Source of the DNA: Candidatus Kaiserbacteria bacterium | GTDB lineage: Bacteria; Patescibacteriota; Minisyncoccia; Phycocordibacterales; UBA2100 | Direction: 5' to 3' | NCBI GenBank assembly: GCA_043747375.1 | Contig: JAYTPG010000058.1 | Span: forward strand, 1 to 44,773 | Length of the DNA stretch: 44,773 nucleotides | Shown here: positions 2,891 to 28,211 of the stretch, one piece after another | Layout of the letters: the number at the start of each line of letters is the position of its first letter | Numbering within the stretch: the stretch's first letter is position 1 | The notes under the pieces: model-generated | The model's input: the letters and a program-made list of their open reading frames with translations, nothing else | The model's database searches: none | What the model was told of the DNA's origin: nothing | Program-made: the position numbers and the translations under genes

Positions 2891-4084
2891 ATGAGGACAT
2901 TTCTTAGTCTTTCTTTGGCGGTAGCTTTTGCGTTGCCGTTTTCCGCGAGCGCTTCGTCGAAATTTGAAGTCACTGGCTGGATTCCATATTGGCGTAGCGC
3001 GACAGGCACTGGTGACACCCTCCCGCACCTCAATTCATTGAGTGAGGTAAATCCTTTTGTGTACTCGGTAAAAACAAACGGCACGATCGTCGACAATGGC
3101 TCGCTCGATGAGGAGCCATGGCTTTCCTTTATCGCCGAGGCGAAAAAACAAAAGGTGCGCGTGATACCGACTATTATGTGGAGTAATGGCGACGCCATTC
3201 ATGCGATTCTTTCAAGCGGCCCGCTTCGCCGTTCCTTTGAAGATCACATTGTAAAATTGGTGAAGCAAAATAAGTTCGACGGCATCGATATCGACTTTGA
3301 GGGAAAGCATGCGGAAGACAAAGATAACTTTTCTATTTTTCTGAAAGGCCTGTATCAGCGCATCGGCACGAAGTGGCTCATGTGTACTATTGAGTCTCGT
3401 ACGCCAAACGAATCACGTTATTTTGGTACCGACATTCCGCCGGACGCGACAATATATGCAAACGATCTTGTCGCGATAAATAAGTATTGCGACCGCGTTC
3501 GAGTAATGGCGTACGACCAGCAGGGAGTCGATCAACATCTTGCAACACTCGCGGCGTCTTCCTCGCAACTCTATGCGCCTGTGGGTGACCCTGCCTGGGT
3601 TGAAAAAGTTGTAAACCTTATGTCAAAAAACATTAAGAAAAGCAAAATGTTGATCGGTGTGCCTACATATGGGTACGAATACGATGTGACGGCATATGCG
3701 AACAAGCAGTATCTGTACGATATTCTCTGGACCTTTAATCCTGGCTACGCGACTTCGATTGCGGCGCAGTATGGAATCACACCCACCAGAAACGCGGCAG
3801 GCGAAATGTATTTCACCTACACGCCCAATGCAAACGTTGCCTCAACTTCGCCAACGTCTCTCGGACCAAATTCTGCACTACTCGCTTCTGCTGCATCAGA
3901 TCTCTACGCAACAACGTACAATTCACATCTCGCATTTCGGCTCATTGATTGGAGCGATGCTGAGTCGATTCGCCAGAAGATCGAACTTGCAAAGGAGCTC
4001 GGAATCAGGGGCATTTCCATTTTCAAACTCGACGGTGGGCAAGATCCGAAACTGTGGAGCGTTCTTGAGGGGGTAAAGAAATAA
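2891..4084 (+). CDS. Secreted glycoside hydrolase family 18 (chitinase / peptidoglycan hydrolase-like)
   Basis: Signal peptide MRTFLSLSLAVAFALPFSASA. GH18 catalytic motif FDGIDIDFE (DxxDxDxE). Confidence 0.8.
   Translation: MRTFLSLSLAVAFALPFSASASSKFEVTGWIPYWRSATGTGDTLPHLNSLSEVNPFVYSVKTNGTIVDNGSLDEEPWLSFIAEAKKQKVRVIPTIMWSNGDAIHAILSSGPLRRSFEDHIVKLVKQNKFDGIDIDFEGKHAEDKDNFSIFLKGLYQRIGTKWLMCTIESRTPNESRYFGTDIPPDATIYANDLVAINKYCDRVRVMAYDQQGVDQHLATLAASSSQLYAPVGDPAWVEKVVNLMSKNIKKSKMLIGVPTYGYEYDVTAYANKQYLYDILWTFNPGYATSIAAQYGITPTRNAAGEMYFTYTPNANVASTSPTSLGPNSALLASAASDLYATTYNSHLAFRLIDWSDAESIRQKIELAKELGIRGISIFKLDGGQDPKLWSVLEGVKK
4041..4073. repeat. Direct repeat copy 1 (functional 3' end of the GH18 gene)
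   Basis: aagatccgaaactgtggagcgttcttgaggggg, encoding ..DPKLWSVLEG... An 18-nt perfect core tggagcgttcttgagggg at 4055-4072 recurs at 4665-4682. Confidence 0.9.
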
Positions 4085-4092
4085 TCGTTCTC

Positions 4093-4590
4093 GTGAAACC
4101 GAAACTTTTTGTTTTTATCGGGAAGCCGGGCGCAGGAAAAAGCACCATTATAAGAAAGTTGTTCCCGCGGAGAGAGGTCGTCGATGTGGCGCCGTTCGTT
4201 TTAAAAACCAAAAGGCGGGGAGCTGTCTCTGACAGCAATTCATTACGTGGCTATCGAAACATGTATCAAGAATTTTGGAAAAAGAAAACAATTCGTGCAC
4301 TCGAGATTGGAACAGGATTCCCTGCCTTTAATGTACGGCAATTGAAAAAAATGACTGCGAAGTTCGACATTACGGTATTTCTCCTTGATGTATCATCTGC
4401 GATCGCACTCACTCGTGTGAAAAGACGAGCAACGCTTTTTGATACTGAAGCTTTACAGAGGCGTCTTACGCGGAGGTTTCCAGAAAAACACAAACTTTTT
4501 CTAGATAACATTGGATTGCCGAATCGCGTCATACAAACAGATCGACCTTTGTCCATAACGATACAAGCCTTCAAGAAAATGATTGCGTAA
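4093..4590 (+). CDS. Small P-loop NTPase / kinase-like protein
   Basis: GTG start. Walker A GKPGAGKST at aa 10-17. 165 aa. No narrower family is recognisable by eye. Confidence 0.55.
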   Translation: MKPKLFVFIGKPGAGKSTIIRKLFPRREVVDVAPFVLKTKRRGAVSDSNSLRGYRNMYQEFWKKKTIRALEIGTGFPAFNVRQLKKMTAKFDITVFLLDVSSAIALTRVKRRATLFDTEALQRRLTRRFPEKHKLFLDNIGLPNRVIQTDRPLSITIQAFKKMIA

Positions 4591-4650
4591 AACTGAGCGC
4601 ATCGGTGTTTCTCGATTAAAGCGTTATCGTAAGGTTCGACCTTACGGTAA

Positions 4651-4685
4651 AAGAACCGAGACTCTGGAGCGTTCTTGAGGGGTAA
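4651..4685. repeat. Direct repeat copy 2 (non-coding relic of a GH18 3' end)
   Basis: aagaaccgagactctggagcgttcttgaggggtaa. In the matching frame it reads EPRLWSVLEG-stop, against DPKLWSVLEG in the live gene. The relic frame is closed upstream by TAA 4617-4619. Confidence 0.85.
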
Positions 4686-4717
4686 AAAACAGGGGATTGC
4701 AATTTGTGTGCGTAGTG

Positions 4718-4723
4718 TAGAAT
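4718..4723 (+). promoter_or_regulatory. -10 box TAGAAT placed 7 nt before ATG 4731 (leaderless-type promoter)
   Basis: gtgTAGAATactcctcATG. No Shine-Dalgarno sequence is present. Confidence 0.4.
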
Positions 4724-4730
4724 ACTCCTC

Positions 4731-5498
4731 ATGCCTGAACAAAATATGAGCGGCTCTGCCGCGCCGACCATGTCGGCCAAAAAAGATTATTCTTCACTTT
4801 ATTTACCACTCGCGATAGTTCTTGCGGGTGCACTTATTGCCGTCGGCCTTTTCTTCGGACTTTCCGGAAAGAACGGCGTAGCTTCTGCTGGTAATCCGCC
4901 TTCAGTAAAGGCAGTGAACGTCAAAGACGTAAAGACAGACGGCGATCCGTTTATAGGAAAGCAAGATGCCCCAGTCACGATGGCGTACTGGTACGATTAC
5001 CAGTGCCCGTTCTGCAAAGCTGTTGATGTAGGAGGCATTCCGCAAATTCCTGTTACTCCTGCGTTCCCGACCCTTATAAAAGATTATGTAAATACCGGAA
5101 AACTTAGAATAATTTTTAAGGATTATCCTTTTCTTGGAAATGACTCCGTAACGGCAGCGATGTACGCACATGCGGTATGGGACACGTACCCAGACAAATT
5201 CTATGTGTGGCATGAGGCAATGTTTAAAGCTCAAGACGCCGAGGGAGATCAAGGGTTCGGTAATGAAGAAACTATCCTCGCACTCGTAAAGAAAATTCCT
5301 GGTCTTGATGCTGGTAAATTGAAGGCTGTTGTCGCACAAAACAAAGACTCGTACAAAAAAATAATGGATGCTAACCGAGCGGAAGGTGCAACGTTTGGTA
5401 TCCAGGGAACTCCCGGATTCATCATTGGAACCGTAAAAATAGACGGTGCAGAGGATCTTAAAGCATTTACTGCCGCTATTGATGGTCAGTTGAAATAA
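4731..5498 (+). CDS. Membrane-anchored DsbA-family thiol:disulfide oxidoreductase
   Basis: N-terminal TM helix. Thioredoxin-fold active site YDYQCPFCK (CPFC). Confidence 0.8.
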   Translation: MPEQNMSGSAAPTMSAKKDYSSLYLPLAIVLAGALIAVGLFFGLSGKNGVASAGNPPSVKAVNVKDVKTDGDPFIGKQDAPVTMAYWYDYQCPFCKAVDVGGIPQIPVTPAFPTLIKDYVNTGKLRIIFKDYPFLGNDSVTAAMYAHAVWDTYPDKFYVWHEAMFKAQDAEGDQGFGNEETILALVKKIPGLDAGKLKAVVAQNKDSYKKIMDANRAEGATFGIQGTPGFIIGTVKIDGAEDLKAFTAAIDGQLK

Positions 5499-5500
5499 AT

Positions 5501-5920
5501 ATGGGAATCGAGTCAGGTAGTAATGGCGGTTCTTCAGAAGAAGAAAAAGACAACATTACTTCGTATTCCGAGTTTTCCGAAAAACAAGCGCAAAAAGATC
5601 TGGCAGAAGCCAAACGAAGCATTATTGAATTTTCAGACACCATCACTTCTTTTCTGGAAAGAGCAGATCGCGAAACTGATAAAAAAGAAATTGAGACACA
5701 GATTAAGAACATTATCGGCAGAACCAGTGCGTTTGCTTCAGAACATAAAGATGCGCCCGTAGACCCCGCTCTCTTCAAAAGTGTGGGAGAACAATTAAAC
5801 ATAGCCGAAGAAATCCTTGATTCGGGTAATCTTATTGCAAGCAAAAAAGCCGCAAAAGATGCCGCAGTAATTTTTACAAATGCCCTCTCGGAAGCGTATT
5901 TTGGCACTGACAAAAAATGA
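5501..5920 (+). CDS. Hypothetical protein (acidic, Lys/Glu-rich)
   Basis: ATG lies 3 nt after the upstream stop and the ORF fills the gap to msrB. No recognisable motif. Confidence 0.5.
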   Translation: MGIESGSNGGSSEEEKDNITSYSEFSEKQAQKDLAEAKRSIIEFSDTITSFLERADRETDKKEIETQIKNIIGRTSAFASEHKDAPVDPALFKSVGEQLNIAEEILDSGNLIASKKAAKDAAVIFTNALSEAYFGTDKK

Positions 5921-8429: not shown

Positions 8430-9809
8430 ATGGAAGACCTTAAAGAAAAATGTGGCGTGTTTGGTGTTTACGGAAAAGGCCTCGACGTCGCGCGTCTTGC
8501 CTATTTTGGACTCTACTCGCTTCAGCATCGCGGCCAAGAAAGCGCGGGGATTACCGTTTCAGATGGCGAAAAACTAAGCGGACACAAAGATATGGGTCTC
8601 GTCGCCCAGGTCTTTTCTGAGGACATTATTACCTCGCTCAAGGGCCACATCGCCATAGGCCACAATCGCTACTCGACTGCAGGCGGCTCAAAGGTGCGGC
8701 ACGCACAGCCCATCTTGAGTCCGGACGGCATCTTTGCGCTCGGACACAATGGCAATTTACCCTCAACAAAAGCACTCTGGGATTATCTACGGGCATGTGG
8801 CGATGTTTCTGATGGCTCGGACTCCAGTCTCGTCGTTGACGCGATACATGCGGCAATGAAAAAAGGACTTTCCCTCGAAGACGCAATTCGTGAAGTATAC
8901 CCACTTCTTACGGGCGCGTTTTCGATTCTGATTGTTTCCAAAGACAAGCTGATTGCCATTCGAGATCATTGCGGCATCCGGCCGCTTTCTCTCGCGAAAC
9001 TTAATGGCGGTTACATTCTTTCTTCTGAAACATGCGCGCTTCACCCTATAGGAGCGCAGCACATTCGCGAAATAGAGCCAGGTGAAATGTTGGTGATCGA
9101 TGAAAGCGGGCTTCGCAGTGAACAACTTGCAACGCCCAATCCTAAATTCGACATGTTCGAATTTGTGTATTTCGCGCGTCCCGACAGCGACCTCATGGGC
9201 AAATCGGTCTACGAAGTTCGTAAAAATTTCGGCAAGGAACTTGCCCGAGAAAAGAAAATTGAAGCCGATGTGGTTATTCCCGTGCCAGAGACTGCCGTAC
9301 CAGTCGCAATTGGCTACTCGCAAGCTTCGGGAATTCCATTCGAACTCGGGCTCGCGAAAAATCGATATATTCACCGTACCTTTATCCAACCCGAACAGCA
9401 TCTTCGCGAGCAAGGCGTCAAAATGAAATTGACTCCAACGCCGGGCACTATTGCGGGGAAGCGAGTGATTGTAGTTGATGATTCAATCGTGCGGGGAACT
9501 ACTTCGCGGCAAATTGTGAAAATGCTTTTCGAAACGGGCGCAAAAGAAGTGCATTTTGTGGTATCTTCACCACCGGTTAAATTCCCAGACTTTTACGGCA
9601 TAGATACTCCGAAGCAAGCCGATCTTATTGCGTCGCACAAATCCGAAGAAGAGATTAGGGAGTATTTGGGCGCGACCTCACTCCAATATCTTTCACTTGC
9701 CGGGGCAGTCAAATCCATTGGTATTCCCGAGTCACAGTTAAACTCTTCCTGTTTTACGGGAGTGTACCCAATTGATATAGGAGAGAGGAAGGAGGAGATT
9801 TCATACTGA
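8430..9809 (+). CDS. purF: Amidophosphoribosyltransferase
   Basis: Short propeptide, then CGVFGVYG Ntn-amidotransferase Cys. PRPP loop VVDDSIVRGTTS. Confidence 0.9.
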   Translation: MEDLKEKCGVFGVYGKGLDVARLAYFGLYSLQHRGQESAGITVSDGEKLSGHKDMGLVAQVFSEDIITSLKGHIAIGHNRYSTAGGSKVRHAQPILSPDGIFALGHNGNLPSTKALWDYLRACGDVSDGSDSSLVVDAIHAAMKKGLSLEDAIREVYPLLTGAFSILIVSKDKLIAIRDHCGIRPLSLAKLNGGYILSSETCALHPIGAQHIREIEPGEMLVIDESGLRSEQLATPNPKFDMFEFVYFARPDSDLMGKSVYEVRKNFGKELAREKKIEADVVIPVPETAVPVAIGYSQASGIPFELGLAKNRYIHRTFIQPEQHLREQGVKMKLTPTPGTIAGKRVIVVDDSIVRGTTSRQIVKMLFETGAKEVHFVVSSPPVKFPDFYGIDTPKQADLIASHKSEEEIREYLGATSLQYLSLAGAVKSIGIPESQLNSSCFTGVYPIDIGERKEEISY

Positions 9810-9832
9810 ATATACGCCTAAATTTACCCCGG

Positions 9833-9854
9833 CTTGTCGAGCGTAATCGACAGG
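9833..9854 (+). terminator. Weak hairpin after purF
   Basis: cttgtcga-gcgtaa-tcgacagg (8 bp with one G-U pair) followed by tatatagtttat. The U-tract is poor. Confidence 0.3.
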
Positions 9855-9919
9855 TATATAGTTTATAGATTAGTAGCTTAGGGCGTGTGTCGGCGCTCTA
9901 AATATAAGTTTTAAAGGTC

Positions 9920-10110
9920 TTTTTAAGCGTGTGGCCCGATTTTTTTGTCGGGATACGAGGAAAGGGGTCCATCGCTTTCGGGCGAGAGGACAATCGGACA
10001 GGCTTTTTCAGCCTAGTATCTGCGGAAACCCTTCGGTATAGCTTCCTATCGTGACGTCGTTCGGAAAAAAGCTTTTGGTAACGAAAGCCTCCAAATGAAC
10101 GACCTGGAAG
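9920..10110 (+). ncRNA. Probable glmS ribozyme (GlcN6P-responsive) in the glmS 5' leader
   Basis: Lies in a 370-nt gap directly upstream of glmS. AAGCG (9925-9929), then a P1-like hairpin cccga-N7-tcggg. uACGAGG resembles conserved GACGAGG. AUCGC-UUUCGGGCGA resembles AUCGAA..UUCGGCGGA. Further hairpins follow (aggcu-uuuuc-agccu). Boundaries are approximate. Confidence 0.6.
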
Positions 10111-10179
10111 TACAAATACATACTTGTTCGTCTTTACTTACAAGGGGCGACGGTTGTCGCCCATAAATGAGAATTACAT

Positions 10180-12000
10180 ATGTGTGGTATTTTTGCGTAC
10201 ACGGGTGAAAAAAATGCGAGTGAGGTTCTTTTAAACGGGCTTATTTCTCTTGAATATAGAGGATACGATTCTGCGGGCATTTATCTTCCCGAGTCAGGTG
10301 CGATTAAGGCACGAGGCGCGGTAAACGAACTTCGCAAGAAGGTTCCTGCAAATTTTCCTGGCAAAAGCGGAATCGCCCATTTGCGCTGGGCCACGCACGG
10401 TGAACCAGTAGAAAGGAACGCTCATCCGCACGTTGACTGCACGGGCGAGATTTGGGTCGTGCACAATGGCATCATCGAAAATTTCAAAGAACTTAAGCGA
10501 GCTCTGGAAAAAGACGGACACACATTTACCTCTGATTCTGATACCGAAGTCTTGGCGCATCTCGTCGAAAAGCATTTAAAAATAGAAAAGGATTTTGAAA
10601 AAGCCGCATTTGCTTCGCTCAACGAAGTGCGCGGCACCTACGGCATCGCACTTCAATACAAAGGGGAGCCCAACAAGCTTATCGCCGCCCGAATGGGGTC
10701 TCCTATCGTGATTGGTCTCGGCAACGGCGAACATTTCATTGCGTCCGATCCGTCGCCAATTCTGCCTCATACGCGTACGGTTGTCTTTCTTGAAGATGGA
10801 GAAGTCGCCGTTCTCACACCAAAAAAACACTCTATCTTCAAGCTTGACGCATCAAAAGTTAAGCGTGACTCAATGGAAATCGAATGGAATGCTGAAGAGG
10901 CTCAAAAGGGTGGCTACGAGCACTTCATGCTTAAAGAAATCATGGAAGGTCCAGAAGTCATTCGCAATACGCTCCGTGGTCGACTTATCGTCGACAAGGG
11001 AGACGTAAAACTCGGCGGGCTCGAAGCGGTAAAAAAAGAACTTGCGGGTATAGAACGACTCATCATTGTTGCCTGCGGTACGGCATATTACGCCGGCGCC
11101 GTAGGCGAATACATGATTGAAGAGCATACGGGAATTCCCGTAGAAGTCGACTTGGCAAGTGAATTTCGCTATCGAAAGCCAGTCTTGAATAAAAAGACGG
11201 CAGTTCTGGCTATTTCTCAGTCCGGCGAAACCCTCGACACGCTCGAAGCGATGCGAGAAGGTAAGCGACGCGGCGCGCTCACGCTCGGCATCGTGAACAC
11301 TGTCGGCTCGACCATTTCTCGAGAAACAGACGCTGGAGTTCACAACCATGCAGGGCCAGAAATCAGCGTTGCTTCCACCAAAGCCTTTCTTTCCCAGCTC
11401 ACAGCACTTTCACTTTTCACGCTCTTTTTGGGACGACAGCGAAAGATGTCCGAAGCGGAAGGTCGCGACATCACAAGCGAGCTGGAAGCGCTCCCTGCAA
11501 AAGTACAAAAAATACTCGACAAGCATGAGGAAATACAAAAGATGGCCCAGAAATATGTAAAAAGCCGGGATTTTCTCTATATCGGTCGCCGATATAATTA
11601 TCCCGTTGCGTTTGAGGGGGCTATTAAGCTGAAGGAGATTTCATACATTCACGCGGAAGGCTGTGGCGCAGGGGAAATGAAGCACGGGCCAATCGCGATG
11701 ATTGATAACAATTTTCCAACCATGGCGCTCGCGACGAGCGACAGTGTCTATGAAAAGATGGTTTCAAACATTCACGAAATAAAAGCGCGTAAAGGTCCCG
11801 TTATAGCGATTGCCACAGAAGGGGACGAAGAAATCGCAAAGCTCGCCGACGACGTCATCTACGTACCAAAGACAATAGAAATGCTCTCCCCGATTCTAAA
11901 CGTAATACCACTTCAGCTTTTTGCGTACTACTTCGCAAAAGAAAAAGGGTTGAATGTCGACCGTCCGCGCAATCTCGCAAAGTCTGTTACGGTTGAGTAG
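10180..12000 (+). CDS. glmS: Glutamine--fructose-6-phosphate aminotransferase
   Basis: MCGIFAY N-terminal Cys amidotransferase. Two SIS domains (ISQSGETLDT). C-terminal NLAKSVTVE. Confidence 0.95.
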   Translation: MCGIFAYTGEKNASEVLLNGLISLEYRGYDSAGIYLPESGAIKARGAVNELRKKVPANFPGKSGIAHLRWATHGEPVERNAHPHVDCTGEIWVVHNGIIENFKELKRALEKDGHTFTSDSDTEVLAHLVEKHLKIEKDFEKAAFASLNEVRGTYGIALQYKGEPNKLIAARMGSPIVIGLGNGEHFIASDPSPILPHTRTVVFLEDGEVAVLTPKKHSIFKLDASKVKRDSMEIEWNAEEAQKGGYEHFMLKEIMEGPEVIRNTLRGRLIVDKGDVKLGGLEAVKKELAGIERLIIVACGTAYYAGAVGEYMIEEHTGIPVEVDLASEFRYRKPVLNKKTAVLAISQSGETLDTLEAMREGKRRGALTLGIVNTVGSTISRETDAGVHNHAGPEISVASTKAFLSQLTALSLFTLFLGRQRKMSEAEGRDITSELEALPAKVQKILDKHEEIQKMAQKYVKSRDFLYIGRRYNYPVAFEGAIKLKEISYIHAEGCGAGEMKHGPIAMIDNNFPTMALATSDSVYEKMVSNIHEIKARKGPVIAIATEGDEEIAKLADDVIYVPKTIEMLSPILNVIPLQLFAYYFAKEKGLNVDRPRNLAKSVTVE

Positions 12001-20068: not shown

Positions 20069-20788
20069 ATGGCCGCACTCATCTCTTTATTAGTCGTGGG
20101 GTATACAGGATACTGTGTGTGGCACATCCATTCGCTTGCTCAATTGAGCCGCCCGGCTGTCGCAGAGGCGCATGCTTTTGAGAGGGAAGAACCTTCGATG
20201 CCACGTAGAATATTGATTCTTGGTGACAGTACCGCGGTTGGAGTAGGTTCTCCGGCAGCTCTTTCTGTCGCTGGCCGACTCTCGAATGAATTCTCGGCGT
20301 CAGTAGAGAATTACGGGAAGAGCGGCGCTGTAACCGCGGATTTAGATGGTCAAATAAATAGCGCGAAAAAAGATCGGTTCGATCTTATCCTTATTCAGAT
20401 TGGCGCGAACGACGTTATTAATTTTTATTCCCTGAAAAACTCAGCGAAAATGCTCGATGCCGCTCTTATCAAGCTACATAGCCGCGCCGATAGAATCGCA
20501 ATACTTACCGCGGGAAATATCGGAAATGCCCCCTTATTCCCTTGGCCTGTAAGTTGGGCAATGACCTACCGAACACAAATATTACGGGAATTATTTATGG
20601 CAACTGCAGAGAAAAATGATGCCGTATACGTGGATATTTTCTCCCAGCCGGATATCTTTCCATCAAATCCATCGAAGTATTATGCACCGGACATGCTTCA
20701 TCCAAGCGGGGAGGGGTATGGCTATTGGTTTTCTATTGTGAAAAAATATGTCGAAAAAAAGTGGCCCGAGCTTGCGACAAATAAATAA
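20069..20788 (+). CDS. SGNH/GDSL hydrolase with N-terminal TM anchor
   Basis: ILILGDSTAVG (block I), GANDV (block III), DMLHPSGEGY (DxxH). ATG 20069 is chosen because it is non-overlapping. In-frame alternatives are 20054, 20045 and 20027. Confidence 0.7.
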   Translation: MAALISLLVVGYTGYCVWHIHSLAQLSRPAVAEAHAFEREEPSMPRRILILGDSTAVGVGSPAALSVAGRLSNEFSASVENYGKSGAVTADLDGQINSAKKDRFDLILIQIGANDVINFYSLKNSAKMLDAALIKLHSRADRIAILTAGNIGNAPLFPWPVSWAMTYRTQILRELFMATAEKNDAVYVDIFSQPDIFPSNPSKYYAPDMLHPSGEGYGYWFSIVKKYVEKKWPELATNK

Positions 20789-26189: not shown

Positions 26190-28211
26190 TTAAGGTGCCA
26201 TCAAGGCGCGGCCTTGAGCGACAGTAACTGTTCTGATGCCGGTAGATTTTATGTAGTCGAGAATTTGTTGGAATTCGCTCGTCGGAATGTTGAATTGATC
26301 GGGCGTCGAACCTATTTGGTGGAAGCAAAGGATATACCACTGTTTGTTCGCTTTTGCCCTATCTATCCATGACTTGATAGAAGCAAGCGAAGTTGTGTTT
26401 TCGATGCACTGTGAGAAGAGGTTGTATTTGTCGCTTGTCCCCGTGTTGAGTTGACTGTCGTCCACCCCTCGGCCAGCGGCGTATCCTGCAGCTGCTGTCA
26501 GATTTTTAACCTTGGCGTTCACGGAACCATACGGGTAGGCGATTGTCGTCACGGCCTTACCAGTCAAGTTTTGCAAATAGGTACGAGAGCCAATGATCTC
26601 GTTATTAATCTGCGCGTTAGTGAGCGTGACAAGGTCTGGATGAGAAATTGTATGATCTGCAATCTCGTACCCGAGGTTTGCGATAGTAGTCGCCATCCCC
26701 GGAGTCATATACCCTGGGAAATTTGAGTTGTTCCGTATAACGTCAGAAATAAGGTAAAACGTCGCTGGAAGGCCAGATTTCTGCAGCACAGGTAATGCAT
26801 TTGTGTACTGAGAAGCCCATGCATCGTCGAACGACAAAGTCACCATGCCTTGTGTGAATACCCCGGGGGTCGGCACTATCACGGTAACAGGAACCGAAGC
26901 AGTGCTTGAGCCACCTGCGCCGGCGCACGAAATCGTGTAGGCCGAAGTTATTATTGGAGAAACAGAAAGCGATCCCGAGATTGCTTGAGCGCCGGACCAA
27001 GCTCCCGAAGCGGTGCAAGAAGTAGAGTTTTGGGAGCTCCAAGAAATCACCGTGGACTGACCTTGAGAAATGCTTGTGAGGCTTGCAGAAATCGTAACCG
27101 TCGGCTTTGGAGGTGGCGGCAAGATGTTTACGGTTACGGTCGCTTGCGATGATACACTGCCGCCTGCGCCAGCACAGGTCAGAACATAGGTTGTGGTAAT
27201 GGTGGGCGAAACTGTTTGTGAGCCCGCAAGTGCCAATGCGCCTATCCAGCCATTTGAGCCGGTGCACGAGGTCGCGTTCTGCGAACTCCAGACAAGTGAC
27301 GAGGACTGGCCTTGAATAATTGAGGTCGGGGTGGCGGTAAATGTGACCGCCGGTTTAAGGGGCGGCGGAGTTACTGGAAGAACATTTACGATGACTTGAT
27401 TTGAAACACTCCCACCGGTTCCGGTGCAGCTGAGTACAAATGTTGTAGTCGCAACTGGAGAAATTGTCTGCGTTCCCGAAAGAGCCACAACACCAGTCCA
27501 GCCATTCGATGCGGTGCACGAGGTCGCGTTTGTGGAGGTCCAAGAAAGAGTTGAATTCGAACCGGTGACAATGGATGTCGGACTTGCCGAAAAGGAAAGA
27601 GTTGGTTGGGCAGGCGGCGGCACGTCTGCTGTGAAAGAAACGTCATCAATCGTGAGTGTCCCTTTTAAGTAGATTAGTTGAAATACGTTGGCTTTTGTCA
27701 TGCCTGCTGGGATAACGATTGGAGCGGAGATTTGATTCCATGCTCCTGCAGAGGACGGAACGTCCGCCAGCCAATAATATGAGACGGCACCACCTGCGTT
27801 CGTGTACGCGACGTCTATTTCTGTCGCAACATTTGAGTTGTACCAGACACTATAGGTGTAGGAGGCGCCCGGAGTCACTGACGAGTCTGCGGGGAACCAA
27901 TTTGCGTCCCCCGTAGAATCAGCAGCGAACGTAATAGTCGCGCCTTTTGAGCCTGTATGAGCCGTAGCACTATAAGAGAAAGAGGGATTGGGCGTGCCCC
28001 AATAGGACTGACTCCAGCTTGCAGGAAGTGATCCCGCAGCAGCTTCAAAAGAAGGATTCTGAATCAGATTTGTCACCGCCTGAGCGTGCGAAACGTTCGG
28101 CGAAAATCCGATGCTCAATATCAAACCTGCTGTTAAAAACAAACCGCGCCCAGTGTGAAAATATCCCATACGAGAAAGTGGAATTATGACCCCCAATAAT
28201 TCAAACAGCAC
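26190..28211 (-). CDS. Secreted polysaccharide deacetylase (CE4/NodB) with N-terminal CBM-like domain and three tandem Ig-like repeats
   Basis: GTG start with AGGAG 8 nt upstream. NLIQNPSFE... is a CBM4_9-like module. Three ~85-aa repeats (aa ~198-446). NodB motifs LSFDDAW and HTISHPDL. Confidence 0.85.
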   Translation of the reverse strand: MLFELLGVIIPLSRMGYFHTGRGLFLTAGLILSIGFSPNVSHAQAVTNLIQNPSFEAAAGSLPASWSQSYWGTPNPSFSYSATAHTGSKGATITFAADSTGDANWFPADSSVTPGASYTYSVWYNSNVATEIDVAYTNAGGAVSYYWLADVPSSAGAWNQISAPIVIPAGMTKANVFQLIYLKGTLTIDDVSFTADVPPPAQPTLSFSASPTSIVTGSNSTLSWTSTNATSCTASNGWTGVVALSGTQTISPVATTTFVLSCTGTGGSVSNQVIVNVLPVTPPPLKPAVTFTATPTSIIQGQSSSLVWSSQNATSCTGSNGWIGALALAGSQTVSPTITTTYVLTCAGAGGSVSSQATVTVNILPPPPKPTVTISASLTSISQGQSTVISWSSQNSTSCTASGAWSGAQAISGSLSVSPIITSAYTISCAGAGGSSTASVPVTVIVPTPGVFTQGMVTLSFDDAWASQYTNALPVLQKSGLPATFYLISDVIRNNSNFPGYMTPGMATTIANLGYEIADHTISHPDLVTLTNAQINNEIIGSRTYLQNLTGKAVTTIAYPYGSVNAKVKNLTAAAGYAAGRGVDDSQLNTGTSDKYNLFSQCIENTTSLASIKSWIDRAKANKQWYILCFHQIGSTPDQFNIPTSEFQQILDYIKSTGIRTVTVAQGRALMAP
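26874..27620 (-). repeat. Three tandem ~255-nt coding repeats (Ig-like modules) inside the CE4 gene
   Basis: PTLSFSASPTSIVTGSNSTLSWTSTNATSCTASNGWTG.., PAVTFTATPTSIIQGQSSSLVWSSQNATSCTGSNGWIG.., PTVTISASLTSISQGQSTVISWSSQNSTSCTASGAWSG... Confidence 0.85.

Follow-up and report, generated by a model that had tools for sequence, protein, structure and literature searches.

A small P-loop gene, probably acquired as a single-gene insertion, within a 40-nt direct repeat at the end of a GH18 gene in Candidatus Kaiserbacteria bacterium

How did a small P-loop gene come to lie between a GH18-family glycoside hydrolase gene and a dsbA-like gene, with the last codons of the GH18 gene repeated on its far side? 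The locus is part of a stretch of 44,773 nucleotides (nt) from Candidatus Kaiserbacteria bacterium (assembly GCA_043747375.1, contig JAYTPG010000058.1), here termed the window. The window belongs to a genome (G000) of the Candidate Phyla Radiation (CPR)/Patescibacteria type, with a size of 866,760 bp (0.87 Mb) and a completeness of 93%. The order on the + strand is the GH18 gene, an 8-nt spacer, the P-loop open reading frame (ORF), 33 nt, a hairpin, the second copy of the GH18 3′ end, a promoter-like block and the dsbA-like gene. Together with the observed repeat, empty sites, lineage-specific gene and polarity of the two copies, this arrangement is best explained (probability about 0.75) by insertion of ~570 nt of foreign DNA at the junction of the GH18 stop codon and the dsbA promoter, with duplication of ~40 nt of resident sequence. 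The features that carry this explanation are:

4041–4080, + strand: repeat copy 1, which spans the final 13 codons of live GH18 (from repeat search, gapped local alignment and outgroup comparison)
4093–4590, + strand: inserted gene for a predicted P-loop kinase with a nucleoside monophosphate (NMP)-kinase-like fold, 165 amino acids (aa), GTG start, of a rare AAA_33-like family
4651–4689, + strand: repeat copy 2, a duplicate of the GH18 3′ end that is non-coding and decaying (from repeat search and gapped local alignment)

The repeat search aligns positions 4041–4077 with 4651–4687 (37 nt, 86% identity, spacing 610), and gapped local alignment gives 4041–4080 with 4651–4689, where 35 of 40 positions are identical and there is one 1-nt indel (five G residues in one copy and four in the other). 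Both copies contain the 18-nt core TGGAGCGTTCTTGAGGGG without a mismatch. A preliminary description of this DNA, made from the sequence alone, had placed a direct repeat with such a core here and judged it to be beyond chance. The statistics agree: a 19-nt pattern with up to three mismatches finds just the two sites in the window, with 0 expected from 100 shuffles. The same description had considered that the repeat might be a common genome-wide motif, which it is not; the 18-nt core with up to two mismatches occurs twice in the entire genome, both times in this repeat. As an empirical null, the same probe was compared at 26 orthologous loci with the 1.5 kb downstream of each; the scores were 16–24, versus 52 here. 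Upstream of 4041 and 4651 the similarity is no better than that of shuffled sequences (P = 0.18 anchored, 0.82 local), and a longer repeat, suggested by an apparent TTC..CT..ACGGT match upstream, was rejected as insignificant.

The 40-nt repeat encloses an insert of 570 nt that consists of the P-loop gene and the hairpin. Contigs from five independent metagenome assemblies (ERZ28573555, ERZ28573512, ERZ27315223, SRR14689434 and SRR23617286) show 0 differences from this sequence over up to 2,800 nt. Thus the arrangement is real and is no assembly artefact.

The junctions can be read with the help of the neighbouring genes and the block before dsbA:

2891–4084, + strand: GH18-family glycoside hydrolase gene, 397 aa, signal-peptide-like N-terminus, Pfam Glyco_hydro_18
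4697–4723, + strand: conserved dsbA promoter-like block, TTGCAA, 15 nt, extended −10 TGTAGAAT
4731–5498, + strand: DsbA-like thioredoxin-fold gene with a CPFC motif (Pfam Thioredoxin_4, 4.6e-26; DSBA, 3.3e-11)

A search for an empty site, set beforehand in the preliminary description, was successful: at least 14 congeneric genomes have dsbA directly behind the GH18 gene (G001, G011, G017, G021, G010, G002, G007, G024, G060, G096, G089, G106, G073 and G098). By DNA, the nearest relative in this stretch is G060, and the wider order ABC permease–GH18–dsbA–msrB is common to both genomes. The dsbA protein has 65% aa identity to the G060 ortholog, which sits directly after GH18; dsbA is the ancestral right-hand neighbor of the GH18 gene. 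A base-by-base comparison of the junction was made with the three genomes closest in this stretch, G060, G106 and G096. In these, the GH18 gene ends with ...GVKK-TAG and the promoter-like block begins 3–4 nt past the stop codon. Copy 1 is continuous with the live gene and carries the genus-typical tail ...LEGVKK-stop. In copy 2, the GAG codon is 17 nt away from TTGCA, compared with 18–19 nt in G106, G060 and G096. With copy 1 in the live gene and copy 2 at the ancestral distance from the block, the DNA between the copies is the insert.

Copy 2 reads TAA-SVIVRFDLTVKEPRLWSVLEG-TAA, the first TAA being at 4617–4619, where its frame is closed 11 codons upstream, as had been pointed out before. Relatives were used to polarize the five differences between the copies. 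GAT>GAA (D>E, with D conserved in most relatives), AAA>AGA, the loss of one G and AAG>AAA are derived in copy 2, and these changes include loss of the stop codon; the fifth difference, CTG/CTC, is of ambiguous polarity. Copy 1 keeps the ancestral state at four of the five positions in the outgroup comparison. Thus copy 2 is a decaying duplicate that drifts as non-coding DNA. The two copies are 88% identical (35/40), whereas orthologous GH18 3′ ends of different species show ~66%–72% identity. This shows that the duplication is younger than the species splits and that the repeat arose from the lineage's own sequence.

The P-loop gene was not found in 24 congeners and 16 genomes of other families in the order. 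Nor was it found anywhere in the genomes of the 115 congeners searched (0/115), where the only matches, with E > 0.003, are unrelated P-loop stretches. In a maximum-likelihood GH18 tree, a clade with 85/96 support groups G000 with the empty-site genomes G060, G073, G002, G001 and G089, and more empty-site genomes are found outside this clade. The nested position of G000 among empty-site genomes indicates gain, not loss. Downstream of GH18, no further GH18 3′ end is seen at any of the 26 orthologous loci compared, and a recurrent hotspot was rejected on this basis. Likewise, a search for further copies of the cassette, which the preliminary description had proposed, yielded no second copy of the insert in this genome.

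The single-gene cassette insertion proposed in that description is therefore supported by the empty sites, by the absence of the gene from 115 congeners and by the lineage-specific repeat. It had placed the insertion in the 3′ end of the GH18 gene; the insertion itself stands, while its point is where the GH18 stop codon adjoins the dsbA promoter and not inside the reading frame. The suggestion that the cassette carried a replacement C-terminus is not borne out, since the tail in copy 1 is genus-typical and copy 2 is degenerate, so that nothing need have been carried in. The observation that no recombinase is present in the insert is correct, as the kinase gene is its only gene.

The following course of events is proposed. 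Foreign DNA of ~570 nt, comprising one promoterless P-loop kinase gene and a 3′ hairpin, would have entered the junction of the GH18 stop codon and the dsbA promoter in the lineage of G000. The event would have duplicated ~40 nt of resident DNA, the last 13 codons of GH18. The left copy would have been retained in the live gene under selection, and the right copy, stranded before the dsbA promoter, would be decaying. The DNA may have arrived by uptake; ComEC is present in the genome, which makes uptake of environmental DNA plausible as an entry route. Capture may have proceeded via illegitimate, non-site-specific repair or via replication template switching, in which the template switch would have returned ~40 nt upstream of its departure point. 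At present the gene would be expressed by read-through from GH18. Duplication during illegitimate capture of taken-up DNA is favored over att-type integration.

Several observations weigh against this course of events. To our knowledge, a flanking duplication of 40 nt is not well documented for illegitimate recombination in bacteria, and 40 nt far exceeds the target-site duplications made by transposases. Ku was not found in this 93%-complete genome; thus capture by classical non-homologous end joining is unsupported. The five differences are unevenly spread: the left 13 nt have three of them, whereas the 18-nt core has none; such a spread would also fit an att core with heterologous arms, and five events are not statistically telling. 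Lastly, the 7 nt that follow copy 2 are CAGGGGA (4690–4696). They resemble neither the ATAATCG after copy 1 nor the stop-codon region of relatives, and thus the right junction is not a mere duplication plus drift.

The other explanations differ in what they make of the two copies. That the repeat arose by chance, is a widespread sequence motif or reflects an assembly error has next to no probability, given 0 matches expected in shuffles, just two copies in this genome, a background score of 16–24 versus 52, and the same sequence in five independent assemblies. The P-loop gene could also be ancestral to the genus and have been lost from all other species when the direct repeats recombined; a deletion of this kind, between repeats of 40 nt, would recreate exactly the empty-site structure of the relatives. 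This is very improbable. Many independent losses would be required, G000 is nested among empty-site genomes and the gene is found in none of the 115 congeners; the copies are 88% alike versus ~70% for orthologous ends, which dates the duplication after the species splits, and the composition of the gene is atypical. A similarly slight chance is given to a tandem duplication of GH18, the alternative offered in the preliminary description, in which the second gene was nearly all replaced or deleted and its last 40 nt were left. Copy 2 is indeed a frame-compatible relic of the GH18 3′ end, but the similarity stops abruptly at 4041/4651 with flanks at the level of shuffles (P = 0.18–0.8), and positions 4085–4650 hold nothing similar to GH18. 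In addition, the rest of the paralog would have vanished wholly while copy 2 remained 88% identical, and neither a tandem GH18 gene nor a second 3′ end is seen in the 26 relatives compared.

Site-specific integration of the att type is unlikely, although it accounts for several features of the repeat. A small circle with an attP that mimics the GH18 3′ end would have crossed over in the 18-nt core, making copy 1 attL and copy 2 attR, with the integrase acting in trans or since deleted. The perfect core, the diverged arms and the sharp outer boundaries of homology fit this, as does the target, the 3′ end of a gene that remains intact, an arrangement classic of integrative elements carrying a replacement 3′ end. 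Repeat-bounded islands are also found elsewhere in the genome (a 78-nt pair on contig C9 and a 31-nt pair by tRNA-Gln on contig C46). However, neither the insert nor its vicinity encodes an integrase, and the only tyrosine recombinase of the genome (PF00589) is Xer-like and located on contig C23; no serine-recombinase catalytic domain was found in the genome. The insert measures no more than 570 nt, and just 8 nt separate the GH18 stop from the promoterless gene that it carries. The arms would have to derive from a GH18 gene of at least 88% identity, while the cargo is in 0/115 congeners. There is no other copy of the insert, no relative with a different cargo and a duplicated GH18 end, and no phage, plasmid or IMG/VR relative. 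A further idea is that the insert is a miniature non-autonomous cassette moved by an unrecognized trans-acting CPR system that targets gene 3′ ends, duplicates ~40 nt and uses the 18-nt core as its crossover site. This is clearly improbable; if true, gene cassettes in ultra-small genomes would have a new mode of mobility. Insertion of foreign DNA at the junction of GH18 and dsbA, with duplication of resident sequence, is thus the preferred explanation.

The inserted gene itself raises the question of what it encodes and where it came from. Its translated sequence has the Walker A motif GKPGAGKS directly after an N-terminal beta strand (KLFVFIGKPGAGKST at residues 4–18). In an alignment of 36 family sequences, G10, G15 and K16 (Walker A), E71 and P130 are invariant, and D31, Y54, G73, C98, R108, R112 and F129 are near-invariant. 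The window protein keeps all of these residues but C98, which is L; R108 and R112 are its lid arginines. The family also has the specific motifs ILELGTNH and RDFP, from which the window protein deviates by having TGF for TNH.

The family is rare. A word-indexed search of 5.8 billion proteins matched the inserted protein just to itself. An exhaustive HMMER search of 1.84 billion cluster representatives gave 57 hits at E ≤ 0.001 and 35 at E ≤ 1e-10; nearly all homologs are 160–175 aa in length and align end to end, the best with 39% identity. In a 400-genome sample of the phylum, just one other genome has a full-length family member. The window protein scores 22.7 bits against Pfam AAA_33, below the cut-off of 27, and 29 of the 36 family members match AAA_33 at E ≤ 0.001 (best, 3.2e-12).

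An AlphaFold model made with the family alignment as input has a mean predicted local distance difference test (pLDDT) value of 95.9 and a predicted template modeling (pTM) score of 0.91. The predicted fold is of the three-layer alpha/beta type, includes a parallel sheet and a lid, and can be superimposed on known nucleotide or sugar kinases. The top 50 Foldseek matches in the PDB are adenylate, UMP-CMP, shikimate, gluconate and thymidylate kinases (E-values down to 7e-8, template modeling (TM) scores 0.54–0.70). Among PDB sequences, the family profile best matches the PnkP kinase domain of Clostridium thermocellum and PSTK (E ~1e-7 to 1e-6). On the strength of the model, the protein can be assigned with confidence to the P-loop kinases of the NMP-kinase fold, as a member of a rare uncharacterized AAA_33-like family. 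The gene would encode a small-molecule or polynucleotide kinase.

This settles the classification that the preliminary description had left between a kinase, a zeta-like protein and an AAA protein. The protein does not match zeta toxin (Zeta_toxin, PF06414), as do only six of its 36 relatives, and a zeta-type toxin–antitoxin pair is rejected since the gene lies between GH18 and dsbA without a small partner ORF. AAA+ ATPases, whose core has a C-terminal helical lid domain, sensor motifs and an arginine finger, are excluded by the length of 165 aa with a kinase fold, and AAA+ matches span just a ~25-residue Walker A stretch. The kinase assignment also rules out a GTPase. A defence-system identity was not upheld, PADLOC giving noise only (E ~0.005). 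Phage, plasmid and IMG/VR collections contain no homologs of the protein, and a phage, plasmid or viral origin was rejected on this basis.

Three homologs (27%–39% identical) could be placed on contigs, where they lie amid ordinary chromosomal genes on metagenome contigs resembling those of small genomes. Two of these three loci adjoin genes for tmk, dCMP deaminase, dUTPase, thyX/thyA and DHFR. This points weakly to a function in (deoxy)nucleotide metabolism, and the kinase may possibly act in nucleotide salvage. The contig of the closest homolog (L051) also has, at 9327–10988, a gene for a 553-aa protein with Pfam hits to Vault, Vault_3 and MVP_shoulder. This vault-like gene stands amid bacterial-type genes (ThrRS, ribosomal protein L25, thyX), an unusual context.

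The preliminary description had judged by eye that the insert is more AT-rich than its surroundings, and this difference is real but mild. The inserted gene has a G+C content (GC) of 0.432 compared with a gene mean of 0.482, which is the 3.5th percentile of 635 long ORFs. Its G+C content at third codon positions (GC3) is at the 9th percentile and its codon score is at the 14th percentile. The neighbors dsbA and orf139 are likewise low in GC. The composition of the inserted gene is thus mildly atypical. Low GC and GC3, together with a best homolog that is only 39% identical, support a putative foreign origin of the gene.

The locus holds a second small gene that is nearly lineage-specific, orf139 (window 5501–5920, + strand), located between dsbA and msrB. 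No Pfam model matches it; GC stands at 0.408 (0.6th percentile) and GC3 at 0.338 (0.2nd percentile). It is found in one of the 115 congeners, at 32% identity, and no flanking direct repeat was found. The dsbA–msrB spacer in G060 has ~200 nt of non-coding sequence in place of orf139.

Two further features bear on how the inserted gene is expressed:

4085–4092, + strand: 8-nt spacer from the GH18 stop to the GTG start codon of the P-loop gene, no promoter-like site found
4624–4650, + strand: hairpin that ends the insert on its right side and abuts copy 2 (inverted repeat I18, 12-nt arms, 3-nt loop)

A GTG start shortly past the GH18 stop had been noted before, and the spacer is 8 nt. A scan found no convincing canonical promoter or terminator within the insert. 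The inserted gene starts just behind the GH18 stop codon and lacks a promoter-like site, so it probably shares a transcript with GH18 through read-through. The hairpin core CGTAAGG-ttcga-CCTTACG lies at 4628–4646, as had been described, and the arms are longer, extending to 4624–4635 and 4639–4650. The hairpin forms the central stem of the minimum-free-energy fold; the fold of 4585–4700 as a whole is unexceptional (z = −1.55). It has no T-run and the terminator scan does not call it. It may nevertheless serve as the transcription stop of the inserted gene. Rfam shows no match at E ≤ 1 in 3900–4900.

The block before dsbA, in the form TTGC(A/G)...TAGTGTAGAAT with ATG 6–9 nt later, is present upstream of dsbA in ten relatives (G001, G011, G017, G010, G024, G060, G096, G089, G106 and G098; loci L006, L007, L009, L015, L019, L055, L057–L059 and L061). 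Here it ends 7 nt short of the dsbA ATG. Because the block is this close to the ATG, the dsbA mRNA is probably leaderless, and the block is probably its promoter across the genus. The generic promoter scan misses the block because its spacer is 15 nt.

The GH18 protein matches Pfam Glyco_hydro_18 with E = 1.2e-29 over 312 of 317 model positions and has the catalytic motif DGIDIDFE (DxxDxDxE) of the family. It is a short form that ends with ...DGGQDPKLWSVLEGVKK-stop, the stop codon being at 4082–4084. Orthologs are found in 22 of 24 sampled congeners, and the tail GVK[KQR]-stop is common to relatives. The genus has two forms of this protein, compared at the congener loci L004, L005, L008, L011–L013, L015–L017, L019 and L061. 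The short form ends with ...GVK[KQR]-stop. The long form has a C-terminal extension of ~100–130 aa whose end is a peptidoglycan-binding-like repeat (...FGPATxxAVQKFQxKYGI...GYVGPxTRAKLN). Some orthologs also have an N-terminal extension, and short and long forms are interspersed on the GH18 tree.

Other repeats were seen in the genome and in the window. On contig C9 (476–3153), two minus-strand ORFs lie between 78-nt direct repeats that are 90% identical and 2.6 kb apart. One encodes a 439-aa secreted-looking protein and the other, of 280 aa, resembles the zinc-ribbon/coiled-coil C-terminal part of a large serine recombinase and has no catalytic domain; the region is probably a decayed integrated element. 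On contig C46 (14740–20561), a 31-nt direct repeat pair (30/31 identical) is 5.8 kb apart, and one copy abuts the 3′ end of tRNA-Gln(ctg) (20564–20637, minus strand), the usual signature of a tRNA-gene island. On contig C18 (7468–8131), two near-identical hairpin-forming 26-nt repeats of the type TGTTCCACTTTAC...GTAAAGTGGAACA flank one 194-aa minus-strand ORF, with a tRNA-like sequence adjacent. Within the window, a 34-nt direct repeat (27245–27278 and 27497–27530; 91% identical, 252 nt apart) lies inside a 673-aa ORF (26190–28211, minus strand) and is probably an internal protein repeat.

The locus is a well-resolved example of horizontal acquisition of a single gene in a reduced CPR genome, in which the junctions, the empty site and the polarity of decay are all visible. 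It provides a worked case of gene gain without obvious mobile-element machinery, where a promoterless gene is slotted behind an existing gene and the neighbor's promoter is left undisturbed, and it draws attention to a rare P-loop kinase family with a confident structure. The kind of event is already known; this is a new example and does not reveal a new type of system. Its unusual features are the 40-nt flanking duplication and the lack of identifiable mobility machinery. A literature search found nothing relevant on comparable insertion scars in CPR genomes.

The protein and the insertion can both be compared with known systems. With kinases of the AAA_33/NMP-kinase type, the protein shares the N-terminal strand followed by Walker A GxxGxGKS/T, the five-stranded parallel sheet and the lid arginines, as well as the predicted fold (TM 0.6–0.7 to adenylate, UMP-CMP, shikimate and gluconate kinases). 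It differs by an identity of no more than 19% to any solved kinase, by a score below the AAA_33 cut-off and by motifs of its own family.

Insertion sequences (IS) and transposons, like the insert, have a direct repeat of the target immediately on both sides of the inserted DNA. Their target-site duplications are of 2–14 bp and come with a transposase and terminal inverted repeats. The duplication seen here has 40 nt, the two insert ends (~4085 and 4650) do not form an inverted repeat with each other, and a transposase ORF is lacking; an IS element or transposon was rejected accordingly. Integron cassettes resemble the insert in being a single promoterless ORF followed by an imperfect palindrome and expressed from an upstream promoter. 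They are not flanked by duplicated target sequence, whereas the insert is. When attC core sites (RYYYAAC ... GTTRRRY) were tested, no GTTRRRY was found in 4585–4700, hence there are no attC R″/R′ sites, and IntI and attI are also lacking; an integron cassette was thus rejected.

The closest parallel in layout is with insertions that duplicate the 3′ end of a protein-coding target, such as phage 21 and e14 in E. coli icd. In both cases the gene 3′ end is found twice as a direct repeat around the inserted DNA, the upstream gene is intact and the displaced fragment decays beside the downstream neighbor. Of the two marks of attL/attR-bounded elements, the insert has direct repeats at both ends and no integrase of its own. 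It differs from phage 21/e14-type elements by its size of 570 nt with one promoterless gene and neither an integrase nor other element genes, and in that the live 3′ end here looks resident and ancestral, not imported.

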